Both the position numbers and the translations under genes were made by a program. 64,000 nt of DNA, taken from assembly GCF_963921235.1 (NCBI RefSeq), contig NC_086107.1, positions 95,668,001 through 95,732,000 of the forward strand, given 5' to 3'. Under the pieces are notes generated by a model. That model ran no database searches. It was not told the DNA's origin and saw only the letters and a list, made by a program, of their open reading frames with translations. Each line of letters opens with the position of its first letter. Within the stretch, counting starts at the first letter, position 1. The DNA comes from Mobula hypostoma (taxonomy: Eukaryota). This document shows positions 2,886 to 52,429 of the stretch, piece by piece.

Positions 2886-3347
2886 CTGATTTTCATTGAT
2901 TTCAGAATAATCTAAGTTGATCACAGATGACATCAGGATCTAGATCAACTGGGCAAAGGGAGCCAAGAAATGGCAGATGGAATTTCACTCGGGAAAGTGC
3001 AAAGTGAAGCTTCTTGAGAAGTTAAACCAGGCCAGGGCTTCCACTGTGACTAGCAATGTTGTAGAACAGAATCCCACACGTGCAAATAGATAGATAATGA
3101 CAGAAATATACCACCTAGACAAAATGGTGAGGAAGACACATGGCACTTGCCCTCATTGGTCAGGAGGTTTGGTCTAAAATAGAGACAGCAGATTACAACC
3201 ACACAAGATTCAGGCGAGCCCGCACTCAGAGTACTATGTTCAGTTCTAGTCACTATACTGCAGGAAGCACGTGATTAAGCTAGAGAGGATACAGAACAGA
3301 TTCACAAGGATTTTGTTTGGCGGGCTTGAGTTACGAGGAGAGACTGG

Positions 3348-5385: not shown

Positions 5386-7540
5386 CAGTGGTCCTCAACC
5401 ACCGGGCCGCAAAGCATGTGCTACCAGGCTGCGAGGAAACAATATGATCTGGCGATATGAAACGATATGGGTCAGCTGCACCTTTCCTCATTCCCTGTCA
5501 CGACCACTGTTGAACTTGAGTGCATGTGAGGTCATTACGCACGCGTCATCCATGTCCGCACGGGAAGAAGATCAACTCCTCGAGCTTGCAAATGACGGCG
5601 GGCTGAAAAGAATGTTTGACATAACATCTCTGCTGGCATTCTGGATCAAAGTCAAGGCTGAATATCCTGAGATAGCCACGGAAGCACTGAAAACATTGCT
5701 TCCATTTCCAACATACCTCTGCGAAGCAGGGTTTTCTGCAATGAATGCAACGAAAACTAAATTGCGGAATAAACTGGAAAACTGGACATAAGGAACCCCC
5801 TTCGAGTATCGCTGTCTCCCATCACCCCTCGATGGGACCGTCTTGTTGCAGGGAAACACGCTCAGGGCTCCCGCTGATCCAGCGATATTAGTGTGTTGCA
5901 ATGAGTTTATATATTCATACGAGGAAAATATATGCTGTGTTTAATATCCAAATGTTACTTAAAATGTTATGATGCTATTGACTTATAAGTGACTTATAAT
6001 TGTCTTATCACTATATTCATGGGAGGAAAATATGCACTGTGTGTTTAATATTAAATTCATTAGATAAACCCTTTTAGAAACGAAATCGAGTGTATTAGCC
6101 ACTTATAAGTGACTTTTAGTTGACTTATCACTTATATTCCAGTTGTGATTAACACCCCTCCCCCCAGGGTTGCCAACTGTCCCGTATTAGCTGGGACATC
6201 CCATATAAATGTGAGGTTATTCACTTTGGTAACAAGAACAGGAAAACAGATTTATTAGCTGAATGGTGGCCAATTAGGAAAAGGGGAGGTGCAACGAGAC
6301 CTGGGTGTCATTGTACACCAGTCATTGAAAGTGGGCATGCAGGTACAGCAGGCGGTGAAAAAGGCGAATGGTATGCTGGCATTCATAGCAAGAGGATTCG
6401 AGGACAGGAGCAGGGAGGTACTACTGCAGTTGTACAAGGCCTTGGTGAGACCACACCTGGAGCATTGTGTGCAGTTTTGGTCCCTTAATCTGAGGAAAGA
6501 CATTCTTGCCATAGAGGGGGTACAAAGAAGGTTCACCAGAATGGTTCCTGGGGTGGCAGGACTTTCATATGATGAGAGACTGGATCGACTAGGCTTATAC
6601 TCTCTGGAATTTAGAAGATTGAGGGGGGATCTGATTGAAACACATAAAATTCTAAAGGGATTGGACAGGCTAGATGCAGGAAGATTGTTCCCGATGTTGG
6701 GGAAGTCCAGAAGGAGGGGTCACAGTTTGAGGATAAAGGGGAAGCCTTTTAGGACAGAGATGAGAAAAAACTTCTTCACACAGAGAGTGGTGAATCTGTG
6801 GAATTCTCTGCCACAGGAAACAGTTGAGGCCAGTTCATTGGCTATGTTTAAGAGGGAGTTAGATACGGCCCTTGTGGCTAAAGGGATCAGGGGTATGGAG
6901 AGAAGGCAGGTATAGGGTTCTGAGTTGGATTATCAGACATGATCGTACTGAAGGCGGTGCAGGCTCGAAGGGCTGAATGGCCTACTCCTGCACCTATTTT
7001 CTATGTTTCTATATTGGGCTAAATTGGTTTGTCCCATACGGGACCGTCCTTGTCCTGTATTTCTCCCGTAAAGGTAGAGCGTTCCTATGAAACCTTTCGT
7101 GCTGAAATGACGTAAAGCGAAGAAGCAATTATCATTAATTTATATGGGAAAAATTTTTGAGCGTTCAGAGACCCAAAAAATAACCTACCAAATCATACCA
7201 AATAACACATAAAACCTCAAATAACACTAACATATAGTAAAATCAGGAATGAGATGATAAATACACAGCCTATATAAAGTAGAAATAATGTATGTACAGT
7301 GTAGTTTCACTGAAGAATCGCTAAAACTGATTTGTAGAAAAAAAAATTGGCACGTACACGCATGCGTATGGCATGTACGCGTACACAAGTGCCCGCGCAA
7401 GGCTTCATCATCATGGTAGGCTTTCTCCGGGTAAACAGTGAGAAAGTTGGCAACCCTACCCCCACCCCCAGTCGGCCGGTCCGCAAGAACATTGTCAATA
7501 TTAAATCGGTCCGCGATGCAAAAAAGGTTAGGGACCCCTG
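5386..7540 (+). mobile_element. Non-autonomous hAT (Charlie/Buster-like) element with nested insertions
   Basis: TIRs CAGTGGTCCTCAACC / GGTTAGGGACCCCTG; perfect 8-bp TSD TCATAAGG (5378-5385, 7541-7548); transposase C-terminal remnant FWIKVKAEYPEIA...LLPFPTYLCEAGFS. Confidence 0.92.
6205..7012 (+). mobile_element. 5'-truncated CR1 LINE nested in the hAT element
   Basis: ORF 6289-6915 is a CR1 RT C-terminus (LYKALVRPHLEHCVQFWS, FFTQRVVNLWNSLP); the element ends in a TATGTTTC repeat tail. Confidence 0.92.
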
Positions 7541-8249: not shown

Positions 8250-9895
8250 TTGGATGGTGAGGACAATATGAGTCAGGTTGATGTTCTGGAGCATGTTGAT
8301 ATTAAGAGAGAGGAGGTGTTGGAGTTGTTAAAATACATTAGGACGGGTAAGTCCCTGGGGCCTGATGGAATATTCCCCAGGCTGCTGCACTAGGCGAGGG
8401 AAGAGATTGCTGAGCCTCTGGCTAGGATTTTTACGTCCTCGTTGTCCACGGAAATGGTACCGGAGGATTGGAGGGAGGCGAATGTTGTCCCCTTGTTCAA
8501 ACAAGGTAGTAGGGATAGTCTGGGCAATTATAGACCAGTGAACCTTACGTCTGTGGTGGGAAAGCTGTTGGAAAAGATTCTTACAGATAGGATCTCTGGG
8601 CATTTAGAGAGTCATGGTCTGATCAGGGACCGTCAGCATGGCTTTGTGAAGGGCAGATCGTGTCGAACAAGCCTGATAGAGTTCTTTGAGGAGGTGACCA
8701 GGCATATAGATGAGGGTAGTGCAGTGGATGTGATCTATATGGATTTTAGTAAGGCATTTGACAAGGTTCCACATGGTAGGCTTATTCAGAAAGTCAGAAG
8801 GCATGGGATCCAGGGAAGTTTGGCCAGGTGGATTCAGAATTGGCTTGCCTGCAGAAGGCAGAGGGTCGTGGTGGAGGGAGTACATTCAGCTTAGAGGATT
8901 GTGACTAGTGGTGTCCCACAAGGATCTATTCTGGGACCTCTACTTTTGGTGATTTTTATTAAAAACCTGGATGTGGGGGTAGAGGGGTGGGTTGGCAAGT
9001 TTGCAGACGACACAAAGGTTGGTGGTGTTGTAGATAGTGTAGAGGATTGTCGAAGATTGCAGAGAGACATTGATAGGATGCAGAAGTGGGCTGAGAAGTG
9101 GCAGATGGAGTTCAACCCGGAGAAGTGTGAAGTGGTACACTTTGGAAGGACAAACTCCAAGGCAGAGTACAAAGTAAATGGCAGGGTACTTGGCAGTGTG
9201 GAGGAGCAGAGGGATCTGGGGGTACATGTCTACAGATCCCTGAAAGTTGCCTCACAGGTGGATAGGGTAGTTAAGAAAGCTTATGGAGTGTTAGCTTTCA
9301 TAAGTCGAGGGATAGAGTTTAAGAGTCGCAATGTAACGATGCAGCTCTATAAAACTCTGGTTAGGCCACACTTGGAGTACTGTGTCCAGTTCTGGTCACC
9401 TCACTATAGGAAGGATGTGGAAGCATTGGAAAGGGTACAGAGGAGATTTACCAGGATGCTGCCTGGTTTAGAGAGTATGCATTATGATCAGAGATTAAGG
9501 GAGCTAGGGCTTTACTCTTTGGAGAGAAGGAGGATGAGAGGAGACATGATAGAGGTGTACAAGATAATAAGAGGAAATAGATAGAGTGGATAGCCAGCGC
9601 CTCTTCCCCAGGGCACCACTGCTCAATAGAAGAGGACATGGCTTTAAGGTAAGGGGTGGGAAGTTCAAGGGGTATATTAGAGGAAGGTTTTTTACTCAGA
9701 GAGTGGTTGGTGCGTGGAATGCACTGCCTGAGTCAGTGGTGGAGGCAGATACACTAGTGAAATTTAAGAGACTACTAGACAGGTATATGGAGGAATTTAA
9801 GGTGGGGGGTTATATGGGAGGCTGGGTTTGAGGGTCGGCACAACATTGTGGGCCAAAGGGCCTGTAATGTGCTGTACTATTCTATGTTCTATGTT
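8250..9895 (+). mobile_element. CR1 LINE reverse transcriptase region to 3' tail (pseudogenised)
   Basis: YRPVNLTSVVGKLLE, QHGFVKGRSC, YMDFSKAFDKVPH, GVPQGSILGP, FADD; in-frame stops near 8391 and 8892; (TATGTTC)n tail. Confidence 0.95.
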
Positions 9896-10604
9896 TATTT
9901 ACTGAGTCTACCCACAAGAAAACAAACCTCAGGATTGGATATGGCGACGTATATAAATAAACTTACTTTGAACTTTGGACCATTCCCTATCTGCATGCAG
10001 CAAGAGCTGGAGAACTTTAACAATACAAACAGAAATTCCTGGAAGAACTCACTTCAGGCTGAAGACACCCCACATGACTATTCCTCCTCCCACAGATTCA
10101 GTCTCCTTCCAACATTTTGATTTTGTTTTAGATTTCTAATATTTACCAGTTTGCTTAGATTTTCGTGACAGAGCATTCCAACAGCACGTGCATTTCATGT
10201 CACAGACGTAGGGACACAGATCAAGCCTGACCTAGTCCAAACCCATCTTTTTGCCCATTGACAAATTCCATTTGCCTAAATTAGGAATGTATCCTTCGAT
10301 ATTTTAGAAATAGCTTCTTCCCCTCCGCTATGAGATTTTTGAATTGTTCATCTACTTTCCTCTGCTTTTGTACTAATTATTTATTATAACAGCCATTTAT
10401 GTATTGCATTGTACAGCGGTGGCAAAATGACATTTCAAGATATATGGCACGTCAGTGATAATAGGTTAGCAGGTTAATTGGCCATTGTACATTGTATTGT
10501 GATTAAGCTAGTATTAAACAGGTGGTTGCTGGGTGTTGTACTGCGTCTGTACTGCACTGTATCTCTAAATAAATACATAATAAACTTAACTCTAATGTCC
10601 ATCT

Positions 10605-10802
10605 GGGGTGTATGGGGTGTCCAGGGAGGGGTAGCACCTCTGGTGGGGGGGGGAGGGGGCTACCATGCCCTTTTCAGGGCAGCTCATCCACCTTTGGTCC
10701 CCACCTGGCGCTCAACTCTCACCTGTGGCTCCAAGTAGTTGTAGCACGCGCAGCGGCCACACCCCGGTAAACCGTCTCGGCACACAGGCCAAACCAGGTG
10801 AG
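10605..10802 (+). ncRNA. HDV-like self-cleaving ribozyme (predicted)
   Basis: P1 GGGGTGT 10605-10611 / ACACCCC 10759-10765; P2 CTCACCTG 10718-10725 / CAGGTGAG 10795-10802; P3 GGC 10727-10729 / GCC 10756-10758; P1.1 CC 10731-10732 / GG 10766-10767; J4/2 CCAA 10789-10792. Folded by eye. Confidence 0.7.
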
Positions 10803-11144
10803 GGTAGCCGATGGGTCTTTGACCCTCGGCGAGGTAGGGGATCTGCCTGTCCCAACGTGTGAAGTCTGGCCCTGGTAGATTGAGCGGAGGAGACTGATTA
10901 ATGGTCCAACGGTCAAGAAGGCAGGGCCAGCGGGCGTGGTGGAGTGCTAAGAGCACGGGAAGACACTTAGACGTCCTGGTCATCCATTGCAAGAGGTGGT
11001 GATCTCTTTAAGCTCACCCGGCAGTAGGCAAAGGCAAACCACTGCTGTAACCTGCCACGAACATGATTTCCCAATATGTCAGAGCGGCGTGGAGGGAAAT
11101 TATCCGCCAACTGGAAATTCCAGATGCGACCTAAAGCGAGCGAG
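10605..11144 (+). mobile_element. Short non-autonomous retroposon with an HDV-like ribozyme head and RTE-like 3' end
   Basis: 8-bp TSD TGTCCATC (10596-10603, 11145-11152); RTE/BovB-like 3' motif GGCAAACCACTGCTGTAACCTGCC; no A/B boxes seen. Confidence 0.8.
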
Positions 11145-11419
11145 TGTCCATCGAAGTGCCTTTTAAATGCAGTAATTGTATCTGACTGTATTGTGTAAAA
11201 AGAGAATTGCCCTCAAATTCCTCTCACTTTAAAACTTTGCTCTGACTTCCGACATCTCACTGTCCATGCCTCTCACAACCTTACATTCTTCCAACAAGTC
11301 ACTCTCTGTCACGACCTCCTTCACTCCATGGAAGGCAAACCAGGCCTATCCAACCCAGGCACTGTCCCCGTGAATCTTGGCCGCGCTCTGTCCCACGTTC
11401 TTGCTGGGGTGCGGCTAAC

Positions 11420-11720
11420 AGCTTCTTCTTCATGTGCCTTGCATGTTATACGCTTGGGCGATCACATCTGTCCACATCGAACGATCCCTCGCAGCGTCAA
11501 TGATATCTCGCACACTTAGATCTGTTAGTTCTTTCAGTGTCCATATATTTTCTTCTTAGCCTTCCTCTTCCGTGTTTACCAGGCATATGGCCTTGTAATG
11601 TAAGGCATTCTATTTCTCCCTTTCTGATGACATGGCCCAGGAATTTAAGTTTCCTCTCGTTTGATGTTCTCATTTTTGTATGGGCACATTGGAGTACTGT
11701 CTCATTAGTTACCCTATCTC
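11420..11720 (-). mobile_element. RTE-clade LINE 3' ORF fragment
   Basis: Minus strand: RKLKFLGHVIRKGEIECLTLQGHMPGKHGRGRLRRKYMD...ARDRSMW, a typical RTE C-terminus. Confidence 0.75.
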
Positions 11721-11732
11721 TAAATCATGAGT

Positions 11733-12379: not shown

Positions 12380-13420
12380 AAGATACTAGCATGATTGGCT
12401 GATTGGAGGGAGGCAAAGAGTGGGAATAAAGGGGGCCTTTTCTGGTTGGCTACAGGTGTCTAATGGTGTTCCACAGGGGTTGGTGTTGGGACCACTTCTT
12501 TTCATGTCTTGTGTCAATGATTTGGATGATGTAATTGATGGCTTTGTGGCCAAGTTTGCAGATGATACAAACGTATATGGAGGGGCAGGCAGTGTTGTGG
12601 AGGCAGGGAGGCTGCAGGACTTAGACAGTAGGAGAATGGGCAAAGAAACGGCAGATGGAATAGTGTTGGTATGTGTATGATCATGCACTTTGGTAGAAGG
12701 AATAAAGGTGTAGACTACTTTCTAAATGGGGACCAAATTCAGAAATTAGAGGTGCAAAGGGACTTGGGAGTCCTCATGCCATAATTCCCTAAAGATTAAC
12801 TTGCAGGTTGAGTCGGTGGTGAGGAAGGCAAATGCAACATTAGCATTCATTTCGAGAAGATTATACTACAAGAGCAAGAATGTAATGCTGAAGCTTTACA
12901 AGGTATTAGGCTGCATTTGTCATGAACAGTGTTGGGCCTGTTGTCCAAGAAAGGATATGCTGGCATTGGAGAGGATCCAGAGGTGAGGCACAAGAATGAT
13001 CTCAGGAATGAAAGGGTTAAAGTATGAAGAGAGTTTGATGGTTCTGGGCTTGTACTTGCCGGAGTTTAGAAGAATGAGGGAGGAATCTCATTGGAACCTA
13101 TCAAATATTGAAAGGATTAGATGGAGTGGACATGGAGAGGGTATTTCCTACAGTGGGGGAGTCTAAGGCCAGAGGGCACAGCCTCAGCCATTAGAAAAGA
13201 GGTGAGGAGGAATTTATTTTGCCAGAGGTTGGTGAATCTGTAGAATTCATTGCCACAGGTGACTGTGGAGGCCAAGTCATTGGGTATATTTAAAGTGGAG
13301 GTTGACAGGTTCTTGATTAGTAATGATATCAAAGGTTATGGGAGAAGGCAGGAGAAAAAGGTTGAAAGGGTTAATAAATCAGACATGATGGGATGGCAGA
13401 ACAGACCTGATGGGCCAAAT
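12380..13420 (+). mobile_element. Degraded CR1 LINE (RT to 3' end)
   Basis: GVPQGLVLGPLLF and KFADDT motifs, many indels. Confidence 0.88.
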
Positions 13421-17569: not shown

Positions 17570-18740
17570 GTTAGCACATCGAACAGTATAGCACAGGAAC
17601 CGATCCTTTGGCCCACAATGTGGCATTAAACCAACTAAATTAATGCCAATCCAAACTAATTCCTTCTGCCGACATGATGTCCATATCCCTCCATTTTCTG
17701 TACATTCATGTACCCATCCAAAAGCCTCTTAAACCCCTCCATTGTATTTGCCTCCACCACCAACCCTGGCAGTACATTCCCGACACCCACCACCTCTCTG
17801 TGTAAAAAAAACTTACCCTGCACATCTCCTTTGAACCCTCCCTGCTGACCTTAAATGCACACCCTATTAGACACCTGGTCCCCAAGGAAGAAAATAACAA
17901 ACTTTCTACTTATTTATGCCTCTCATAATCTTATAACCCTCTTATCAGATCTCTCCCCAGGTTCGGAGAAACTAGTCCAAGTTTGTCCACATCACCTTAA
18001 AGCGCATTCCCTCCATCCAAGCAGCATTTTGGTAAACCTGTTCTATATTCTCTCCAAAGCCTATAAGTGGGTACAATATTCCAATTGCAGCCTAACTAGA
18101 GTTTTATAAAGCCGCAGTATCATTTTCCGACTCTATTTAAATATCTCAACTCATGAACACAAGTATAACATACGTCATTTTATTACCCTGTGTGGCTGCA
18201 GACTTGGATTCCAAAATCCCTACATAAACCAACACTGTTAAGGATCCTTTGCATTTGATCTCTTCACATTTGGCCGGATTAAATTCCATCTGCAATTGAT
18301 CTATATCCCGTTGTATGCTTTGTTATTTTATTTAGCGAGAACAGGCCCTTCGACAAACCCCGTTTAACCCTAACCTTATGACCAGTTAACCTACCCGGAA
18401 CATCTTTGGACTGTGGGAGAGAACCGAGCGGACCCGCTTTCCACGGGGAGGACGTAAAGAGACTCCTTACAGGACGGTGCCGGAACTGAACTCCGAAACG
18501 CGCCGCGCTAACCACTAACGCCTTCTCCCATCTACAAGATCACCAATCTTTGCACCGTCTGCAAATTCACTAACCCCACGTATGCAGGCTATTTATATAC
18601 GTGCATATTGCAAGCAGCAGAGACTCCAGTTCAGAACACCACCAGTCACAGACTTCCAGCCGGAATAAATCCGATCGCCCACGATCCGCTGTCTTTAATG
18701 GGCAAGCCAATTCTTAACCCAAGCAGCCAAGTCACCGTGT
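17570..18740 (-). mobile_element. CR1 LINE fragment with a nested SINE
   Basis: Reverse complement of CR1 RT C-terminus and 3' UTR; SINE at about 18320-18520. Confidence 0.75.
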
Positions 18741-18769
18741 TGGCTACATAGATACATTTCTGCCCCAAA

Positions 18770-19965
18770 CACAGTTACCCCACATACCCTGAGACAACTT
18801 TACCTACACCTCCGCCGCTGCCCAGCACAATGTTCCTCCCAGATACACTGTTACTCACCCAGAGTTACCGACCCCCACACACACTGTTACCCACCCAGAG
18901 CTACCGACCCCTCCACACACTGTTACCCACCCACCCAGTTACCGACCCCCACACACACTGTTACCCACCCAGAGTTACCGACCCCTCCAGACACTGTTAC
19001 CCACCCAGAGTTACCGACCCCCACAAACACTGTTACCCACCCAGAGTTACCGACTCCTCCACACTGTTACCCATCCACCCAGAGATACCGACCCCCAGAC
19101 ACACAGTTACCCTGTTACCCACCCATCCAGAGTTACCGACCCCCAGACACACAGTTACCCACCCAGAGTTACCGACCCCCACACACACTGTTACCCACCC
19201 AGAGTTACCGACCCCTCCAGTTACCCACCCAGAGTTGCCGACCCCCACACACACTGTTACCCACCCACCCAGAGATACTGACCCCCAGACACAGTTACCC
19301 TGTTACCCACCCACCCAGTTACCGACCCCCAGATACACTGTTACCCACCCAGAGTTACCGACCCCCAGACACACTGTTACCCTGTTACACACCCACCCAG
19401 TTACCGACCCCCAGACAGTTACACTGTTACCCACACACACACAGTTATCCTGTTACACTCACCCACCCAGTTACTGACCCCCACACACACTGTTACCCAC
19501 CCACCCAGAGATACCGACCCCCAGACAGTTACCCTGTTACCCACCGAGTTACCAACCCCCAGACACAGTTACCCTGTTACACACCCACCCAGTTACCGAC
19601 CCCCAGACAGTTACACTGTTACCCAACCACCCAGAGTTACCGACCCCCACACAGTTACCCTGTTACACTCACCCACCCAGTTACCGACCCCCAGACACAC
19701 TGTTACCTACCCAGAGTTACCAACCCCCACACACAGTTACCCTATTACACTCACCCACCCAGAGTTACTGACCCCCAGACACACTGTTACCCACCCAGAG
19801 TTACCGACCCCCACATACACAGTTACCCTGTTACACTCACCCACCCAGAGTTACTGACCCCCAGACACCCTGTTATCCACCCAGAGTTATCGACCCCCAG
19901 ACACACTGTTACCCACCCAGAGTTACCGACCCCCACATACACAGTTACCCTGTTACACTCACCCA
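18770..19965. repeat. Compound minisatellite, about 36-bp core GTTACCCACCCAGAGTTACCGACCCCCAGACACACA with variants
   Basis: Directly visible tandem array; C-rich plus strand, G-rich minus strand. Confidence 0.95.
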
Positions 19966-20030
19966 CCCATCGCCAGCACACGGTAACCAGTCCGTCCGCT
20001 CCTCCGGTCCAGGACCGCCCAACCAATCGC
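19963..20030 (-). other. Probable non-coding first exon of the RAS gene
   Basis: CpG-rich unique sequence ending in a GG|GTGAGT donor (intron begins at 19962 on the minus strand), next to CCAAT and GC boxes. RAS genes have an upstream non-coding exon. The TSS is not determined. Confidence 0.6.
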
Positions 20031-20379: not shown

Positions 20380-21520
20380 AAAGTATGGTTTGTTCGTGAA
20401 GTAGTCTTCTCTGAATTGCAGGGAGATCTTGATCAGTTAGAGAGTGGACTGAGGAGTGGCAGATGTTTTTTTTAATTAACTAAGTATGAGTTGATGCATT
20501 TTGGACCTTCTAACCTATACAGTGAATGGCAGGGCACTGAAGAGTGTTCTGGGACAGAAGGGCCGAGCAGTACAAGTGAACAATTCGCGTGAGTAGACAG
20601 GGTGGTGAAGAAGGCTGCCCTTCCTCAGTAGGGGATTTAAGGGTTATATGGGGAAAAGGCAGGTAGGTGGAGATGAGTCCATGGTCTGTGGAATTCTCTG
20701 CCACAGGAAACAGTTGAAGCCAGTTCATTGGCTATATTTGAGAGGGAGTTAGATATGGCCCTTGTGGCTAAAGGGATCCGGGGTATGGAGAGAAGGCAGG
20801 TGCAGGGTTCTGAGTTGGATTATCAGCCATGATCATACTGAATGGCGGTGCAGGCTTGAAGGGCCGAATGGCCTAGTCCTGCACCTACTTTCTATGTTTC
20901 TATGGTCAGATCAGTCATGATCTTATTGAATGGCAGAGCAGGCTCGATGAGCTGGATGGCCTACTCCCACTCCTATTTCTTATGGTCTTATGTTTATGTT
21001 AGTCAGGGTTGTTAGTTTAGGAGCAGGAACATTATGTTGCAGTTAGATATGATGTTGGTGACACTGCTCTTAAAGTATTTATGTACAGATTTGGTTACTC
21101 TGTTAAAGTAAAGACGTTGTCAAGGTGGAGAGGGTTCAGAAGAGATTTACGAGGATTTTGCATGTTTTCAGGGCCCAAGTTAAGAGAGAGGGGTTGACCA
21201 CACTGAATCTATTCCTTGGAGCGTAGGACAATGAAGGGTGACCTCAAAGAAATTTATAAGGGGTATGGATGAGGTGGACAATCATAGTCTTTTCTCCAGG
21301 GTTGGGTAGTTCAGATAAGAGGGGATAGATTTAAAAGAGATGTGAGAGGCAACAACTTTGACAGAGGGTCGCGGGCATGAGCTGCCAGAGGAAGTGGTCG
21401 AGGCAGGTACAGTGGCAATATGTGAGGCATTGGGAGGGTTATGGGCTGAAAACAAGCATTTGGGATTAGTGGGGCACGTGGTGTGGTCTGTATAGAGTCG
21501 ATTGGCCAATGGGCCTGTTT
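20380..21520 (+). mobile_element. Nested CR1 fragments
   Basis: 20685-20903 is near-identical to the CR1 3' end at 6795-7010; older CR1 remnants flank it. Confidence 0.8.
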
Positions 21521-26822: not shown

Positions 26823-28240
26823 AACCCTAAGGAACTATCGTTCCTAATAGAACTGCGCACAGTACTGATACAACATCGGACAATAGAGGACCAGGGTCTT
26901 CCACTGACAATACCTGTACTGAACATGATAATTCTTTCTGCTTGTACATGATCCTTCCTTTCCCAGTATATTCACCCAGCTATCTAAAAGCCTCTTAAAT
27001 ACAATTTATTCATTGTCATATTGCACGCAGTTCTTTGCAGCCTTTCTTAAAGAACATTACCTCCCCCCCCCCACCAATCTAATGGCGTCTTACCTATGGC
27101 TAGCAAATATGATCACAAGAGACCCTGAAATTTCTCCCCTGGCTTTCCACAATGTTCTGGGACAGTGTTGTAAAGGACTCATCTTTGTGCTTGTCGAATA
27201 TCTCACCAACACAGTGGCCTTGAGAGTAACAGAACTTCTTATACTTTCACTCTTTCATTAATCCTGTTTAGTTATTACTGTATTCTATAGATTGCTGAGT
27301 ATGTCTGCAGGAAAATAAATCCCAGGGTTGTATATGGGGATGTGTATGTACTCTGATAATAACTTTTTTCTTTGAACTGAGAAAAGTTTTAAAATTATTA
27401 GTGTTATGGTCATAGTTTTCCCCAATGATACTGAAGTCTCTTGCCCTGCTTTCTTTTCCATTGAAGAGGTTGAGTTTTGCCTCTTCTCAAGTTGGGTCAT
27501 CCATATATTGACTGAGAGCAAATCCTAAACATGCTTAACAAATTCCGAGAGACCAGGGGTACAACTCCAACATTCCCTGAGAGTGGTGAAGAAGACATAC
27601 CAGGCAACACACTTGCCTTCATTGATCAGGACATCAGTAACACTCAAAACATCATATCACAGCTGTGTGAGACATTGGTGAGATTGCACCTGGGACATTG
27701 TTTAGAGTTCTGGTCACCATACTACTGAATGATCTGACTAAGTTAGAGAAGGTGCTGAAAAGATTCTGCGGGGTGTTGCCAGTACAGGAGGACCAAATCT
27801 GCAAGGAGCGATGTTATAGGCTAGGACTGTTTTGTCTGGAATGGAGGAAGCCAAGGTGTGACCTTATAGGGGGCCATAAATTAGGTGGATGGTCACAGTC
27901 TTTTTCCCAAGGTAAGGGAGTCATAAAGACAAACAAGCACAGAAATGAGCCCCTTGGATATCCAAGATCCCAATCCAAGCTAGTCCCATATTTGGCCTAT
28001 ATACCTCCAAACTTTTCCTATCTATGTACCTGTTCAAGTAACTACTAAATGTCAACCAATTTCTCTGGCAGCTGATTCCATATACTGACCACCCTGAGTG
28101 AAAATGTTGCTTCTCAGCTTCCTATTAAATCTTAAACCTTATATTGATGCCCTTTAGATCACACAAACCTGGGGAAAATACTGTGTGCATTGGACATTTT
28201 CTTTGTCACTCGTGAGATCACCTCATGTTCTCCTACTTTC

Positions 28241-28644
28241 CAGTGAAGGCAGCCCCAACCTGCACAACTTCTCTCCGTAACTCTGTCCATCAATGAAGGC
28301 AGCCTCAACCTGCACAACCTCTCTCCGTAACTCTGTCCATCAGTGAAGGCAGCCCCAACCAGCACAACCTCTCTCCGTAACTCTGTCCATCAATGAAGGC
28401 AGCCCCAACCTGCACAACCTCTCTCCGTAACTCTGTCCATCAATGAAGGCAGCCCCAACCTGCACAACCTCTCTCCGTAACTCTGTCCATCAATGAAGGC
28501 AGCCCCAACCAGCACAACCTCTCTCCGTAACTCTGTCCATCAATGAAGGCAGCCCCAACCTGTGCAACCTCTTTCCGTAACTCTGTCCATCAATGAAGGC
28601 AGCCCCAACCTGCACAACTTCTCCCCATAGCTCTGTCTATCAAT
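28241..28644. repeat. Tandem repeat, 8 x 50 bp, derived from CR1 coding sequence
   Basis: Unit CAATGAAGGCAGCCCCAACCTGCACAACCTCTCTCCGTAACTCTGTCCAT starts at 28241, 28291 ... 28591. Confidence 0.95.
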
Positions 28645-30087
28645 TCCCAGCAACATCTTACCTACCATAAATGTTAGGCCTATTGGTCTACAGTTCCTAG
28701 GTTTTTCTTTACCAGATCTGGCCCTGGAGAACATATCTACCTTCTGTGCTGTAACGTGGACTAACCTCAAGTTCTGAAGTTTTCATATCCTTCTCCATGA
28801 TAAAAACAAAGGAGAACAATTTACTGAAGATGAAACCCATTTCCTACAGCTCCACTCACAGTTGTCCATTTTGGTCTTTAAAGATTTTGAGAGATACAAA
28901 TCAAATGGGAGGGATTAGCTTGGGAAGGCACATTGGTCAGCATGAATGAGTTGGGCTGAAGGGCCTGTTTCCATGCTCTGTGATGAAGGACCAAGAATTT
29001 TTGCCAAATATTTTCATTATTTTTATCTCACTATGTTTTGTGCAGGTTAGTTGTAGCTTCTGGAAATTACCTATTATAGAACTCTTTTATGTCCTTACAA
29101 ATTTGTCCTTTGGGATGCGAGTAGACTCGTTCCTGTCATCCACTCGTACAATGCACGAATAATCAATGCCAACACAAAAGGGTGGTGGTGGTCCATACAT
29201 TTCATGGCTCCTCACCACTGCACCTTACAGCCTTCCAGAGTTTCAGACATAATTTTTAATATAAGTTAATTTCTTAATACCTTCGCCCCTCCAGTCAAAG
29301 AACTTTCGGTATATATTGAATGCTTTAGGATTCTCTTTCATCCGACTTGCCAAGACCCTTCCAGGCTCTCATAATTCCCTTCTTTTCTTTTCTGGCTTCT
29401 ATATAATCATGAAGGACTCTGTTTGGTTTTAACTTTCTAAACCATACATATGCCTCCTTCTTAAATTCACCACCTCTATCAACATCTAAGGTTTCCTTAT
29501 CTTGCCATTCCAGTGCTGTCTCCTTATTGGGATCAACCTGCCCTGTTACTCTGTGCATTTGGTCTTTAACCATCCTCCACGCTGATTTGTTTTCACCTAA
29601 ACAGCTGTTCCCCATCAGTTCTCTCTAGTTCCTGCCTAATATTCTTGCAGTGCACCCTGCTCCAATTTAATACTCTCCCATGAGGTCCAGACTTATCTGT
29701 ACCTATAGACATCTTAAAATTTAAGAAGTTGTGGTCACCATTCCCCAACTGTTCTCCCCCAAAAGCTCAGTCACCTGGCTTGGCTCATTTCCCAATACTA
29801 GTTCCAGTATGGTCCTTCCTCTTGTTAAATTATCTAAATACTGATTTAACAAACCTCCAAGGTGCACCTATGAATTCTGCACGTCTAATCCTTTTGTACC
29901 AAGGAGGTTCCAGTGTATATTGGGGAAGTTGAAGTCACTCATGACAACAACATTGTTGCTTTTACACCGTTCCCTAATCAGCCCACATATCAGTTCCTCA
30001 CTGTTTCAGTGGCTCTGGTGTGGGGTGGGGAGTGTCCTGTGATTTAATCCCATCAGAGTGATTGCACTTTTTAAAGTTCTATTCATA

Positions 30088-38210: not shown

Positions 38211-38821
38211 CACTTTTCCTTTTTCTTCTTGACTAAATTTTTCACCTCTCTCAATATCCATGGTTCTCTTACCTTGCTATCCCAGTGCTTTCTCCTTATT
38301 GGAACCAACTTGTCCTGTATTCTGTGCAGTTAGCCTTTAAACCCTCTCCACATGTCAGATGTGGACTTGCCAAACGTTCCCAATTAACTCTCCCTAGTTC
38401 CTGCCTAATAGGCATCCATTAGTCTCGTGAGACCATGAATTTGTGCCTTGGAAGGTTTCCAGGGCGCAGGCCTGAGCAAGGTTGTATGGAAGACTGGCAG
38501 TTGCCCATGCTGCAAGTCTCCTCTCTCCACGCCACCGATGTTGTCCAAGGGAAGGGCACTAGGGCTGATACAGCTTGTCACCAGTGTCATCACAGAGCAA
38601 TATGTGGTTAAGTGCCTTGCTCAAGGACACAACATGCTGCCACAGCTGAGGCTTGAACTAGCGACCTTCAGATCACTAGACTGATGCCTTAACCACTTGG
38701 CCATGCACCAACATATCCTGCCTAATGGTCTTGTAATTTTGCCCTGCTCCATTTTAATTCTCTCCCGCAAAGTTCATACTTATCCTTATACCATCTTAAA
38801 ACTTAACAAGTTGTGGTCATT

Positions 38822-45767: not shown

Positions 45768-48700
45768 AATGTTTGAAGAAAAATAGCTGTTCTTGAACCC
45801 GGTGGTGTTGGACTTCAGGATTCTGTACCCCCCCCCACCCCCGTCCAAGACGCCATGGCCCAAATGGAGGGAATATTTGATGATAAATGTTACTTTCTTG
45901 GAAAAACAGTCAGGGCATTGAACATAGGTGCTGGGATATTACGTTGCTGTTCGTGAGGCTGCACTTGGAAATTTGTACAGATTTGGTCACCCTGTTAGAG
46001 GAAAGACCTGGTGAAAATGGAAAGAATGCAGAAGAGATTTACAAGGGCCAGAGGACTGGAGTTTACAGGGAGAGGTCGGCCTAGCGAGGTCTTCGCTCCT
46101 TGGGATATAGGGGCAACCTTATAGAAATATCTAAAATTATGATTGTCATACATAAGGTGGACTATAAAAATCTTTTCCCCAGGGTAGGGGAGTCCAAAAC
46201 AAAAGGGAAAAGGGTTAGGATGAGCAGGGAAAGATTTAAAAGGAGGAACTTTTGCTTGCTGAAGCTGGTGGGACAAGCGGCTAAGATATGTAGTGTGCAA
46301 TAATATTACTTACCAAGTGCCTGGATAGGTGAAAGGAGGACCAGGGCTTGAAGGGATATGGTTTGAATGGAGGAAAATGGTCTAGCTGGGTTGGCATGAA
46401 CTGGTTGGGCCAAAGGGCCAGAATCGTATCCCGGCTATTTCCTCCTCCCCCCAGCCCACACCAGACAGACAAAACAGGAATAAGAGTTGCCCTGGTTTTC
46501 ACCCATGCACCCCACGTAGACTGTTTTGCAAGTACCGCCAGAGAAAAAAGAATCTCAGGGCTGGATGTGGTGATGTGCCTGTGCTCTGATAATAAATTTT
46601 ACTTTGCACTTTGTGTTTTGAGTTGAGAGAGAGACACCAGAGTTTGCATCTGAGCTCAGTTTGAAAGCCTGCAAATAAAACTTCAGGAAAATTATTAAAT
46701 TCAGGATATTAAAGTGTTAGATCAATCTCTGCCTTAACTGCAGAGTTATAATGTATCTTCTCGTTCACCAAGGGATTAGAGTCAACAAAGCATAGAGCTT
46801 CAGCATGCACAAGGCACGGATTGTCCGGCGTCTCTTCTCCACCAGCAGGTTTACGTGCCATCTTGCCGTCAGCATACAGGCTAACTGACTGTGTGTGGGA
46901 CAGGTTCAGAATGAGAGGCAGCAGCCCTCGGAACAATGGGATAATCACAACCTCTGTGGGTTCCCGGTGAGATTCATTGAAGAGGTGAAGCCGTCAGTCG
47001 GATGGCAGGTTTTTAACTTCTCAGTTTTCACTGATTTGGTGGACTTTAAAAAACTAACCCTTTCCGTTCTGATGACAGGAGAAGTTACCAACCTGCAGAA
47101 AATTGTAACCCCCGTCAGCTCCATCGTGGGCTCTAGCCTCCCAGCATCCAGGTCACCTTCGTAGTGTAATATCTCAAAAAAGGACCCCCTTCACCCAGGA
47201 CCCGCCCTCTTCCCATTACTGTACTACTATCAGGGGGGAGCCTGAAGGCACACACGCAGCAATTCAGCAACAGTTTCTGTTTACTCTTTTTGCCTACTTA
47301 TTAAGTTTAACTTATATATATACTTACTGTAATTCAGTTTTTTTTTCCTATCATGTATTGCAACGTACTGTTGCTGCATAACAACAAATCTCATGGCATT
47401 TGCCAGTGATGTTAAACCTGATTCATTTCTGATTCTGATGTCTTGATTGTGCCGCAGGAGTTGCTCAGAGTCAAATCTCAGCTGCGGCAGAAGTCTCTGA
47501 AGTCTGGAGGTTTGAACGCTGCAAGGAAGCGACGTTTAGGGTTGGCAAAGGTTAACGGCCAGGCAGAGGAGGAGGAATGCGCTGGTCGCTGGGTTGCCAT
47601 CATGGGGCATGGGTCAGCAAAGTTAGAGAGCGAGTGGCTGACTGACTCCTTCAGGCTCACATCCCAGATTGAAAGATCACAACTGATTTGATGGTATCTG
47701 CATTTCTGAATTCCAGTCTACTTGCAGTAACCTTTCAGCCCCTTGCTTATTAGAACATAGAACATAGAATAGTACAGCACATTACAGGCCCTTTGGCCCA
47801 CAATGTTGTGCCGACCCTCAAACCCTGCCTCCCATATAACCCCCCATCTTAAATTCCTCCATATACCTGTCTAGTAGTCTCTTAAGCTTCACCAGTGCAT
47901 CTGCCTCCACCACTGACTCAGGCAGTGCCCTCAGTCTTCAAAATATTCTTCTTCTGAGGAAGAAATTTCTCACGAGTCTCTGAGAGAAAACATTTCTTCG
48001 TGAACGGACAGTCCCTAATGTTTAAGCAGTGAAATCTACAAGGCTCCCCCAGAAGAGGACACATCATCGCCACAATCACCCTGTCAAGACCCTCTCAGAA
48101 ATTTATACTTCAATCAATTCCCCTCTCATGCGCTAAACTCCAGTAGTTACAATCCAGTCTGTCCAAACATTCCTTCTGAACCAGCAGAGGTATTACACTA
48201 GGAACTTTGCTCTGAGCAGTTAACATTCTCCCTGAAATAAGAAGATGAATCATGCACACAGGTCTCTAGATGTGCCCTCACTTCTGCCATACATAACTGA
48301 GGCGTAACCTCCCAACTTTTCTACTTAATTCCCCTCCCGATAATCTGCCCTGATTACTTGCTCTGTCTGCTGACTAGCCTTGTGCAAGCTACCATGTTGA
48401 ACTACCAGATAACAAACAGCAGGAGCCCAGACTCTGAGAATGGACAGTGATGAAATCTTAGTGGTCTTCGCTTTGCCCGACTGCCAGGCAAATGAATTTG
48501 GACACGTAGGAAGTATTACGTTTCTGAAAAGCTGCACATTTTTTCCTGGTTTCACATCAGTCAGTCTTACCCACTATCCATCAAGGTTGGCAAAATTGGA
48601 AATCGTACACTGGGTAATAACCAAACTACTCATTTCTGCAGGAACCATATTCTAGTCCCAGTTTCAGTCTTCAACTCTGCTAACATTAGTAATCTTTAGG

Positions 48701-49061
48701 TAAATCCTCACCAGCTCCTTCTCATTCTGGCACATAGAGTAATGCTTTGAGATTCAGAACTTAGAACATGGAAGATTATAACACTGGTTAGGCCATTCGG
48801 CCCATGACGTTGTGTCCTCCTCCTGTGATTGATCCATATTCCTCCAATCTCTTCATATTCATGTGTCCAACACTCTCTGATACATTTGTTATTTACTTAA
48901 CCTCTCTGTTCAGATGAATATTCTGCATAAATTGCCTCGGAATATGAATTTAGCACAATATAATTTACAAATTAGCATTTAAATTCATTCTGTTTTTCTG
49001 TCTGCTCAGAATAAGTGAATCCACAAACTAAGTATTTAACCAAGGTAATATTAGGTTTACA

Positions 49062-49235
49062 GGGGTGTAGGGTGCTCTGGATAGAGGCAGTATCTTGGAT
49101 GTCTGGTAGCTGCACTCTACTGTCATGGGGTGGACGGGCATCTCTGACCCTCATCCATCTCCTAAATCGCTCACGTCTGCCACCTAGTGGCACACCCTGG
49201 TACACCACTTCAGCTGGCAGGTGAAACAATGTGAG
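49062..49235 (+). ncRNA. HDV-like ribozyme (predicted, probably inactivated)
   Basis: P1 GGGGTGT 49062-49068 / ACACCCT 49192-49198 (G.U at the cleavage site); P3 GCC 49179-49181 / GGC 49189-49191; 7-nt L3 ACCTAGT; GG 49199-49200; P2 CTCACG 49170-49175 / TGTGAG 49230-49235; J4/2 reads TGAA rather than CGAA. Confidence 0.65.
49177..49192 (-). promoter_or_regulatory. Candidate CTCF site
   Basis: TGCCACTAGGTGGCAG matches the CTCF core CCASYAGRKGGCRS; binding is not shown. Confidence 0.5.
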
Positions 49236-49764
49236 GGGGTGTTGTTAACATGCACCACTGGGCAAGGGGCCTTGTCAACGAAGTCAACGGCAGGACGGAT
49301 GAGTTCCCTGAAGAACGACAATTGCTATGTGTTCGAGACCAGGGCGAGCCATCGAGTTGGAGGACATCGGCTGTGGTCTGGTCTGGAGAGGGATAGGCGC
49401 CGCCAGGCCTCACTAGCCCAAGGCACGCGAAAGTACCCCTACGACCCCTAGGCAGGTTGTGGGATTCGAATCGAACCAATGTTTACAGATTATTCTAAAG
49501 GAAATGATTGGCTCACTTTAAATCTAGTGGCTCAACTTTCCTTGGAAAGAGGTCGCAAGAGTAAAAGTTAGTTTCTAGGGACATCTGAGGAAGAGAGTGG
49601 GTGATCCTGAGCTGGAGACATGGGTAGACTAGTGGTGGGATTAGATTTGGGGATGATCAAAAACTACAGATAATTTAGGAACTGGCTGACACTACAGAGG
49701 ATGAAGAGATAAATATCTGCCTGGCTTAATGGAAACTACTCCTGTTCTGTGTGGAGGGATAGAG

Positions 49765-50260
49765 TATAAAAAGAGGAAGGAGAGAAGATAGCAAGACAAG
49801 AGGTTGGGTGTTAGGGGGAGTGAGTGAGAGGAGGAAGAAAGGAGAAAGCAAAAAGTGGGGATAAATGTGAATGAGACAGTGATGAAGAGAGCAAGTGAGA
49901 AGGACTAGGGATAGGAGGGTAGGAGGGAGTGAGTAAGGGAAGGACTAATGGTAGGAGGGAGGAAGTGAAAGAAGGGCTAAGTATAGGGGAAGGAGGGAGG
50001 GAGAGAAGGTTTAAGGGTAGGAGGGAGAGAAGACAGGAGTGAGGGATGAGAGAAGGACCTAGAGTAGGAGAGTAGAAGGGAGGGAGTGAGAGAAGGGCAG
50101 GAGGGAAAGAGGGAAGGAATGAGAGAAGGACTAAGAGTAGGAGGGAAGGAGTGAAGGAAGACAGGAGGGAGGGAGTGAGAAAAGGGCTAAGAGTAGGGTG
50201 GAGGTAGTAAATGTAGGACTAAGGAGGGAATGAGGAAAATCAAGGATGAAGAGAAATAGG
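49765..50260. repeat. Purine-rich low-complexity tract
   Basis: Degenerate GAGAAGGACTAAGAGTAGGAGGGA-like units, mostly G/A on the plus strand. Confidence 0.85.
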
Positions 50261-52429
50261 CAGCAACTGAGTTCCACAGCTCGCTGGAAGTGGCCACACA
50301 GGCTAGAAAAGGTGTGCGGCAGGCTTGTCTTTACAGATCTGATTGATGAGTGCCAACACTGGCAAGCACGCTGCAGCTCTATAAAACTTTGGCTAGGTCG
50401 CCCTTGGAGTATTGTGTGCAGTCCTGGTCGGCCGATTACAGAAAGGATGTGGAGGCTGAGCGAAGGGTGCAGAAGAAGCTTACCAGGATGCCGCCTGGAT
50501 TGAGGCCATGTGCTATATGAAGAGTTTGGACAAACAGGGCTTGTTTTTTTTTTCTGGAGTGACAGCGACTGAAGGGACATGATAGAAGTTTATCATTTAA
50601 AATTCTGGGAGGCCCTTTTCTTCCGGTGTTGAAATGTCTACTACTTGAGGGCATGCATTTAGGGTGAGAGATGGTAAGTTCAAAGGAGATGTGACGGGTC
50701 AGGTTTTTTTACACAGACAGTAGTGGGTGTCAGGAAAGGCACTGCCAGGGTAGCAGTGGAGGACAATATGATAAATACATTTAAGAGGCTCATAGATAAA
50801 CACATGAATGTGCAGGGATTGGAAAGATATGGGCATTGTGTAGGTAAAGTTCAGTTAGGTCTTTAAGTATTAGTTTAATTAGATCAGTACAACATCATGG
50901 GCTGAAGGGACTGTTCCTATGATGTTATGTACTGTGAGAGAAGAAGGGAAGGACAGAGTGGGTGAGATAGGTAGGGAAGGTGAGAGGGCAAATAAAAGAT
51001 GGGGAGTAATGGGTGCCTAGTGGCGGTGGAAGCAAATATTACAGAGGCTGACAGTTTCCTTGCACATATACATGTTAAATGTAACGTGAATCAGCTCTCT
51101 GATACATGAATTCGTAGACCTTTGACGGATTAGGGATTTATTAAAGGAGGCATCTCATTGTTGTGCCTCACACCATCAGCACTGTGGAGTGAATGGCACT
51201 GTTTTGATGAAAGACTGGGATAACTTTTATTCCAGTTAGGATATTCCAGTCCTTTTTGTGGCAAAGCAATTTCAATCCTTTTTCAATTCCCTTTAAATTT
51301 GTTTTAGGTATTGTTCCCTGTGTTCAAGAGATGGTTTCTTGCAGATATATCCTCCTCCCATTGAAAATATGCTTTTATTTAGGATTGATTTTACCATAGA
51401 CTTTTACCTTTTTTTTCATTAAATGGGGACTAACAATTTCCGTAAGTTATCTGATTCGGATTTGAATCATCTTGTTGAGATGTGTTGGTTGAGTACTTGT
51501 GAGGTAATATCGCTGAACCACGTCAGATTCTAAATGGGGGGGGGAACAGGTGGATGGATGCGACAAAATTGTATCTTCTGGCTTCGGAGGGCAAAACTGT
51601 GAAGTTCTGAACTAGGGGCCTCGGAAGGTGAAATCTGGTCTCTGAGAGGAAGAGAAAGTCAGCTTTTCAGAGGGCTTTGGAGGTATCTTGTTGATGTTTG
51701 CTCAGCCGCTGGTCATTAGAGGCTGAGAGAGATGTGTAGGTAGAACACTAAGGACATCAGGCAGGGACCCATCTGACGTACAGGGTCAACCATAATGTTA
51801 TTACAGAGGTATACAGAATGAAAATAGATTCTCCAGCCCAAATTGCCTATTAGAACCAAGATGTCTCTCCAAGGTATTCCATTTGTCTGTGTTTGGCTGG
51901 GATCCCTTCAAACCTTTCTTACCCATGTACCTGTCCAAATGCCCTCGAAATGTTGTAATTTTATCCCCCTCTGCCACTTGTTCCATATACCCATCATGCT
52001 CTTTGTGAAAACCTGCCTCCTGGGTCTCCTTTACATCCTTCCCCTCCCACCTTAAACCAAGCCAGTCTCTCCATGTCACTTGAGCTTTCAGACCCAGTGG
52101 CACCCTTGTGAATCTTTTCTGTATCCTCTCTTAGCTAAATGACGCCCTTCCTATGTCTGGCTGCACAATATTCTGAATGAGGTCTCACTAACATCCTGTA
52201 CCGTTGCAACATGACATCCCAATGCCTACGTTCAGTGACCCGACTGATGAAGGCAAACCTGTCAAGCATCTCCATCAGCAGCCCATTTACCTGTGTCACC
52301 ACTCCAAAGGAACAATGTACCTTCCAGGAGAACCCCAAGACCTGCTGGTTGCATCAGACAGACAGAAATTCGCACGTACACAAAAGAATAGACACTCACA
52401 CACCATTTGGTCTCTCTATCACGAATAAG

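Follow-up and report, generated by a model that had tools for sequence, protein, structure and literature searches.

HDV-like ribozymes have mainly been found with structure descriptors that fix the L3 loop as short: described members have a single-stranded L3 of ~7–8 nt, natural additions are known in J1/2 and P4, and in HDV crystal structures the strand that returns from L3 to P3 is extruded. As set out in PMC4908430, these ribozymes cleave at the nucleotide that opens P1, and their core is made up of L3 and J4/2; within L3, a guanine pairs with a uridine beside the active site and is required for activity, according to PMC3774820 and PMC13635239. RTE and baggins elements are described in PMC6765202 as having HDV-like ribozymes and lacking promoters of their own.

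We analysed a window of 64,000 nucleotides from Mobula hypostoma (contig NC_086107.1, positions 95,668,001 to 95,732,000 of the forward strand), in which positions 10605–10804 fold into a double pseudoknot of the HDV-like type whose L3 is 26 nt long (Table 1). A preliminary description of this DNA had placed that L3 at 10730–10755 with a UCC start, had drawn a hairpin within it from GTTGT (10738–10742) and GCAGC (10750–10754), and had compared it with a 7-nt loop at 49182–49188. Its coordinates are right on checking against the sequence, the insert can form the named stem, which is also the minimum free energy (MFE) fold of this L3, and the second loop is indeed 7 nt long and belongs to an element with the same layout. 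From its sequence and that of its relatives, the copy at 10605 is likely to be a chimeric, non-autonomous LINE derivative whose 5′ end is an HDV-like ribozyme, predicted to self-cleave in the source elements and to tolerate a lineage-specific hairpin in L3.

Table 1 Features of the two ribozyme-bearing element copies, in window coordinates
Feature	Position	Strand	Remarks
5′ target-site duplication TGTCCATC	10596..10603	.	Identical 8 bases at 11145–11152
P1 5′ strand GGGGUGU	10605..10611	+	7 bp with 10759–10765; predicted cleavage just 5′ of G10605
J1/2 peripheral domain, ~100 nt	10612..10715	+	From constrained folds; diverged between families A and B
P2 5′ strand	10716..10726	+	Pairs with 10793/10795–10804; two-sided changes between families
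P3 5′ strand GGC	10727..10729	+	Middle pair G-C in families A and D, C-G in family B
Canonical L3 part UCCAAGU	10730..10736	+	U, CC (10731–10732, P1.1) and G at conserved L3 positions
L3 insert, 19 nt	10737..10755	+	Hairpin 10738–10742/10750–10754; possible inner pair G10744-C10749 closing CACG
P3 3′ strand GCC	10756..10758	+	3 bp with 10727–10729
P1 3′ strand ACACCCC	10759..10765	+	Pairs with 10605–10611
P1.1 GG	10766..10767	+	2 bp with C10731-C10732
P4	10772..10787	+	6 bp and CGGC loop in family majority; weakened in window copy
J4/2 GCCAA	10788..10792	+	C10789 is the candidate catalytic cytosine
P2 3′ strand	10793..10804	+	A10793 and C10794 bulged, then 10795–10804; 10-bp P2 is 10716–10725 with 10795–10804
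Rest of LINE-shared 5′ part	10805..10991	+	Within element bases 1–387 matching L061–L065
3′ module of other origin	10992..11144	+	Ends ...GACCTAA(AGCG)n
3′ target-site duplication TGTCCATC	11145..11152	.	Identical to 10596–10603
Family B (sister) copy	49062..49480	+	GTTTACA at 49055–49061 and 49481–49487

The ribozyme forms the start of a non-coding copy of a chimeric SINE-like element spanning 10605–11144 on the + strand. Bases 1–387 are the 5′ end of a LINE (88.6–90.2% to L061–L065, an element of ~3.9 kb), while the last 153 nt have no match in those LINE copies; a simple internally deleted LINE was rejected on this ground, and we regard the copy as a chimeric, non-coding, SINE-like derivative because it joins a LINE 5′ end to a tail that the LINE does not share. 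The tail recurs in 19 of the 29 family A loci other than the window's own. With a LINE 5′ end, target-site duplications and no coding capacity, the window copy is an old retrotransposed copy, decayed and dead. The preliminary description had seen the ribozyme and the element near 49 kb, but had overlooked that the first is a decayed repeat copy and that the second belongs to a separate sister family. Compared with the majority of 24 family copies, the window copy differs at 4 of 97 core positions (10715, 10739, 10783 and 10786): the change at 10739 turns a hairpin C-G pair into U.G, and 10783 G>C together with 10786 G>A breaks two P4 pairs. Contigs from three public runs agree with the family majority letters.

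The 3′ module ends in ...CCAGATGCGACCTAA, followed by (CGA)/(AGCG) repeats, and may derive from a different LINE, one that supplies the machinery for copying the element. In four loci of the same genome (L007, L014, L017 and L027), the ribozyme-bearing 5′ end is instead joined to a different tail, ...TCTTCGAATCCGAAGGACTAC, which resembles the 3′ end of the diverged relative L086 described below and, on that resemblance, is probably the LINE's own 3′ end. Since this tail differs from the module at 10992–11144, at least two kinds of non-autonomous derivative exist.

Other repeats occur in the window. Adjoining the first element but not part of it, a frame at 11497–11724 (−) looks like the C-terminal portion of a reverse transcriptase of LINE type (...KLKFLGHVIRKGEIE...GRGRLRRKY...). 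Decayed 3′ parts of one other LINE family, whose frames read ...LEYCVQFWSP and which we take to be CR1-like, occur on the + strand at 3237–3309, 6468–6540, 9383–9455, 21082–21154, 45974–46046 and 50415–50487; there is also a reverse transcriptase-like frame, from the same or another LINE family, at 12390–12680 (+). Tandem arrays comprise a C-rich one with a period of ~36 nt at 18791–20007 (ACCCACCCAGAGTTACCGACCCCC...), with a GC skew of −0.47 over 18001–20000, one with a 50-nt period at 28141–28690 whose inner units are 93–97% alike, and a purine-rich degenerate array of GGGAGG/GAAGGA units at 49889–50170, just downstream of the family B copy. A borderline tRNA match at 38643–38705 (−) scores 29.8 bits against a gathering score of 29, covers model positions 6–65 and is perhaps a tRNA-derived repeat or pseudogene.

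We searched the 3.48-Gb genome with the window element. The family A query, comprising 241 bases around the L3 feature, returned 3237 first-look candidates, and 39 scored matches besides the window's own place were 88–92% identical; the element near 49 kb returned 324 candidates at 77–83% identity (family B). BLAST between these two elements found no similarity, and their kinship is visible only in the ribozyme core blocks and in a covariance-model match (30.9 bits). Between the family A and B majorities, 7 of 7 positions match in P1, 9 of 10 in P3 plus the L3 core and 6 of 7 in J4/2, and 52 of 100 match in J1/2.

The order of helices is that of a nested double pseudoknot (P1, P2, P3 and P1.1, plus P4), with two-sided changes in every helix. 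The L3 letters U, CC and G are kept, as UCCAAGU in the window copy and UCCCAGU, UCCUCGA or UCCUCGU in relatives; the family B window copy has a 7-nt L3 reading ACCUAGU, with its first U mutated. The pattern G-C-Y-R-A precedes the 3′ strand of P2 in 9 of the 12 ribozymes tabulated and places the candidate catalytic cytosine in J4/2. At the cleavage site, the majorities of families A, B and D have a G-C pair, unlike the G.U wobble of HDV; among the short-L3 relatives the pair is G.U in L095 and L100 and G-C in L105 and L158. A second GGGGUGU at 10614–10620 was rejected as a P1 strand: copies start at 10605, and in constrained folds this stretch pairs within J1/2.

Comparisons of pairing were made between lineages, because variation within families is mostly CpG decay in dead copies and was dropped as evidence of covariation. 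We aligned 80 cores by a covariance model that covers P2, P3, P4 and the hairpin in L3; another model, R1, was set aside because it had lost four hairpin pairs. With the caveat that the alignments were fitted to the model, which bears on pairing percentages, 90.6% of cells pair in the 80 cores as against 83.6% in shuffles (0 of 500 reach 90.6%) and at most 52% when partners are slid, and in 17 representatives the values are 93.1%, 86.2% and at most 47%. Two P2 pairs vary on both sides (columns 14/118: CG 46, GC 9, GU 8, AU 6; columns 16/114: GC 42, CG 16), as do a P3 pair (columns 20/57: GC 47, CG 24) and a P4 pair (columns 77/96: CG 40, UA 29). In P1, compensatory changes give GUGGUGU/ACACCAC in L086 and GGGGGG/CCUCCC in L162. 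Overall, compensatory changes back P1, P1.1, P2, P3 and P4, and they represent few events, since about five independent lineages are involved. We conclude from this conservation that the 5′ part of the element is an HDV-like ribozyme, with predicted self-cleavage.

The 5′ boundary of the element coincides with the predicted cleavage site. Upstream flanks are unrelated among 30 aligned family A copies, and column identity, which does not exceed 16/30 at 10604, reaches 22/30 at 10605 and then 28/30 at 10606, so that G10605 is both the first element base and the base just 3′ of the predicted cut. Family B starts likewise at 49062, and both window copies are bordered by target-site duplications. 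Copies that start at G1 and carry target-site duplications fit cleavage, while a transcription start at the same base would look identical.

The L3 insert is present in 30 of 30 aligned family A loci. A descriptor with A/D-type P3 flanks and relaxed L3 length, GGCTCCAAG-N(7-36)-GCCACACCC, found 849 exact matches genome-wide and none in the reversed control, and the same flanks with N(0-6) found 5 matches and 1 in the control; with B-type P3 flanks, the loop is 7 nt long in 23 of 24 matches. Among the first 100 long-L3 matches listed, 59 have the length typical of family D, 23 that of family A and 3 that of family C, with 15 of other lengths. The insert follows a UCCAAGU-type L3 and measures 19 nt in family A, 21 nt in the older family D and 17 nt in the derivative family C; L3 as a whole is 24–28 nt across families C, A and D and the diverged relatives L086 and L162, outside the short L3 of described HDV-like members. 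The preliminary description had proposed a structural variant, to be sought with a relaxed L3 length and to be given up if the insert proved unique to this copy. The 30 loci, the 849 matches and the two diverged relatives bear out a lineage-wide L3 insert in an HDV-like fold. On the sequences compared, the insert is fixed in one lineage and absent from sister lineages, and by parsimony it would have arisen once.

Eight D-type L3 matches lie on one contig (G000:C5:123832449-124177639), 20–98 kb apart and mostly at 33–36 kb, and have unusual hairpin changes in common (GCCG...CACC). The group looks like a segmentally duplicated array with one copy per unit.

The parent element was traced through its coding frames. 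Broken frames of L061 match Exo_endo_phos_2 (1e-6) and RVT_1 (6e-19), and protein relatives have frames of 993–1091 aa on 3.4–4.5-kb contigs from many animals. This agrees with the RTE-like design, in which one frame of ~1050 aa holds an AP-endonuclease and a reverse transcriptase within ~4 kb, and by architecture we assign the parent to the RTE-like LINEs, with a putative endonuclease and reverse transcriptase. A scan of metagenome contigs, for which the aligned protein relatives served as query, yielded 80 loci, in which the covariance model placed the insert in L086 (89.5 bits) and L162 (64.7 bits) and found it absent from L087 (42.1 bits). L117 (21 bits), which is missing UCC and a good P1, was left as doubtful. 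L086 and L162 are 67–70% identical to the fish LINE and carry the insert at the same site, and in L086 an open frame of 1109 codons (endonuclease/reverse transcriptase) stands behind the insert-bearing ribozyme. A loose descriptor, which also returned many obvious false matches, placed canonical ribozymes with a 7-nt L3 upstream of the coding frames of L095, L100, L105 and L158. Intact frames are also found in the plain 7-nt-L3 sister lineages L087, L095 and L158.

Taken by itself, the hairpin of the window copy is energetically ordinary: its L3 folds at −3.4 kcal/mol (z +0.24), a value at least equalled by 111 of 200 shuffles, and z is −0.35 in a majority-like family A copy and −0.01 and −1.62 in two family D copies. 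It is the family-wide pattern (849 matches versus 0), and not the window hairpin alone (z +0.24), that exceeds chance. The stem [G/A]CUGU...[G/A]CAG[C/U] is shared by families A, C and D as well as by L086 and L162, around a hairpin loop that differs between lineages in sequence and in length (7 to 9 nt). Across the 17 representatives, pairing in the hairpin holds for 98.7% of cells, the base pair of the stem is GC in 9, AU in 3 and GU in 1, and the inner pair closing CAYG is GC in 6, GU in 3 and AU in 1, the A-U being that of L086. Among the long-L3 matches listed, a base A accompanies U in 11 of 13 and a base G accompanies U in 17 of 46 (Fisher p = 0.004), an association that linkage by descent could yield as well. 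The family alignment proposed in the preliminary description gives the hairpin moderate support: the insert is conserved and two pairs covary, but four of the seven hairpin pairs are invariant, which speaks neither for nor against pairing, and the energy is ordinary. Judged on these sequences, formation of the hairpin in the L3 insert is likely, not proven.

The loop also contains a 6-nt word that is self-complementary as GCAUGC in families C and D, L162 and L117 and as ACAUGU in L086, and reads GCACGC in family A. This word could be due to an inner R-Y pair that closes a CAYG tetraloop, and a loop–loop contact is a less likely reason for it; kissing through GCAUGC was set aside given the family A form.

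Matching against Rfam did not recover these ribozymes. HDV-type models gave no match in the whole window at the gathering score or at the two loci at E up to 10, and eight relatives, short-L3 ones included, likewise gave no match at E up to 1. The preliminary description had attributed such a miss by standard descriptors to the long L3. As relatives with a 7-nt L3 are missed as well, the long L3 cannot be the whole reason, and we suspect that the ~100-nt J1/2 domain lies behind the miss.

These observations fit a scheme in which the ribozyme of a source element would cleave read-through transcripts immediately 5′ of the first G and so set the element's 5′ end. In one lineage, made up of families A, C and D plus at least two diverged relatives found elsewhere, a hairpin of 17–21 nt would have entered after the conserved guanine of L3 and before the 3′ strand of P3, making a small extra helix out of a 1–2-nt bulge. 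The helix would probably point away from the core, since a position between the L3 guanine and P3 plausibly faces solvent. Because L3 is part of the catalytic core as described in PMC4908430, an insert there might be expected to hurt. The insert was kept while the elements went on multiplying, from which we infer that the ribozyme tolerates it and possibly finds it useful. The main argument for the predicted self-cleavage at G1 in hairpin-bearing source elements is that diverged, coding-competent lineages have preserved an intact core.

The fold could instead be a relic, the insert having inactivated or crippled the ribozyme, with the uniform 5′ end coming from a transcription start under an internal promoter in the first 100–200 nt. 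The place of L3 in the catalytic core is consistent with such damage, the cleavage-site pair is G-C instead of G.U, and L1Tc is described in PMC3383444 as having an internal promoter and a ribozyme in the same 77 nt. After the insertion, however, the core stayed intact across lineages that are 67–70% identical, with the L3 letters U, CC and G and J4/2 retained and compensatory changes in P1 and P4, which disfavours a relic because a dead ribozyme would not keep its core in this way, and the insert is carried by an element with an intact ORF (L086). We therefore consider loss of the ribozyme unlikely.

Under a second possibility the hairpin would be no tolerated passenger but a functional add-on, serving to dock the element's protein or another factor or acting as a folding or regulatory module that renders cleavage conditional, which would include a switch between an extended P3 and P1. 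Its stem is conserved like the catalytic core at 67–70% overall identity, its loop retains an R-CAYG-Y motif with one compensatory change, and PMC6765202 describes the R2 protein as binding a structure within its own ribozyme. Against an add-on, the plain 7-nt-L3 sisters L087, L095 and L158 have intact frames, so the hairpin is not needed, and the GCAUGC palindrome is broken in family A, which argues against loop–loop kissing. The switch itself had been raised in the preliminary description from TGTGGC (10724–10729) and GCCACA (10756–10761). The two strands are complementary, but a P3-extension switch is unsupported: forcing the 6-bp extended P3 gains only 0.2–0.4 kcal/mol in nested-fold energy (−84.3 versus −84.1 kcal/mol in the window copy and −87.6 versus −87.2 in L009), and family B retains one of the three extra pairs. 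A functional add-on thus seems quite improbable. A bolder proposal, which we hold to be doubtful, sees in the L3 hairpin a peripheral domain under selection, a module for docking or gating, meant for the element's own protein or for a folding step, that would tune the timing of the 5′ cut; if true, these elements would carry a naturally occurring HDV-like ribozyme whose activity is conditional.

Chance resemblance of GC-rich 5′ UTR sequence, with no ribozyme fold at all, would suit the ordinary whole-region folding energies (z −0.26 and +0.16) and the missing Rfam match, but is highly improbable given five helices in the right order, each with two-sided changes, the letters conserved in L3 and J4/2, the precise 5′ boundary and the four other contigs in which canonical relatives stand upstream of homologous ORFs.

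A peripheral domain growing from L3 is, to our knowledge, undescribed in HDV-type ribozymes. A literature search for an HDV-like ribozyme with an L3 insert returned nothing relevant, although an earlier description is possible, including in the figures or supplements of primary papers, and a search for HDV-like ribozymes in sharks likewise returned nothing relevant, the one paper combining both terms concerning R2. If an active ribozyme has tolerated the hairpin, an L3 hairpin kept through long evolution alongside intact coding frames would mean that a helix can be accommodated in the core loop and would widen the descriptors used in searches. The insert would also provide a natural test case for the behaviour of the strand between the L3 guanine and P3 and a new insertion point for engineered aptazymes, and it would add a LINE/SINE-like system of cartilaginous fish to the ribozyme-processed retrotransposons.

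The closest described system is the drz-Agam-2 type of mosquito RTE elements. As presented in PMC4908430 and the review PMC6765202, it likewise sits at the 5′ end of a promoter-less endonuclease/reverse transcriptase LINE, has a large structured J1/2 and a long P2 (12 bp there and 10 bp here), and is presumed to free the element RNA from a co-transcript; unlike it, the ribozyme studied here has a 17–21-nt hairpin in L3 and a G-C pair at the cleavage site, and it comes from a chimeric non-autonomous copy in a cartilaginous-fish host. R2 ribozymes, by the account in PMC3774820, share the 5′ HDV-like fold, the variable P4, the conserved L3 guanine and catalytic cytosine and a J1/2 of variable size, tens to hundreds of nt in R2. 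R2 is, however, rDNA-specific and often uses 28S sequence for P1, and that account places P1.1, P3 and L3 in a compact block of ~15 nt, with odd L3 spacing only in Nasonia. The pairing of an autonomous LINE with a non-autonomous partner bearing the same 5′ HDV-like ribozyme has a parallel in L1Tc/NARTc of Trypanosoma cruzi, whose 77-nt minimal ribozyme, as described in PMC3185411 and PMC3383444, differs in doubling as a promoter and in having no L3 insert. Lastly, the crystal structures of HDV and C. briggsae ribozymes treated in PMC13635239 resemble the predicted fold in their two coaxial stacks, L3 G-U pairing beside the active site, catalytic cytosine in J4/2 and 2-bp P1.1; there, 1–2 nt lead from the L3 guanine to the P3 strand, where the elements described here have a predicted hairpin.
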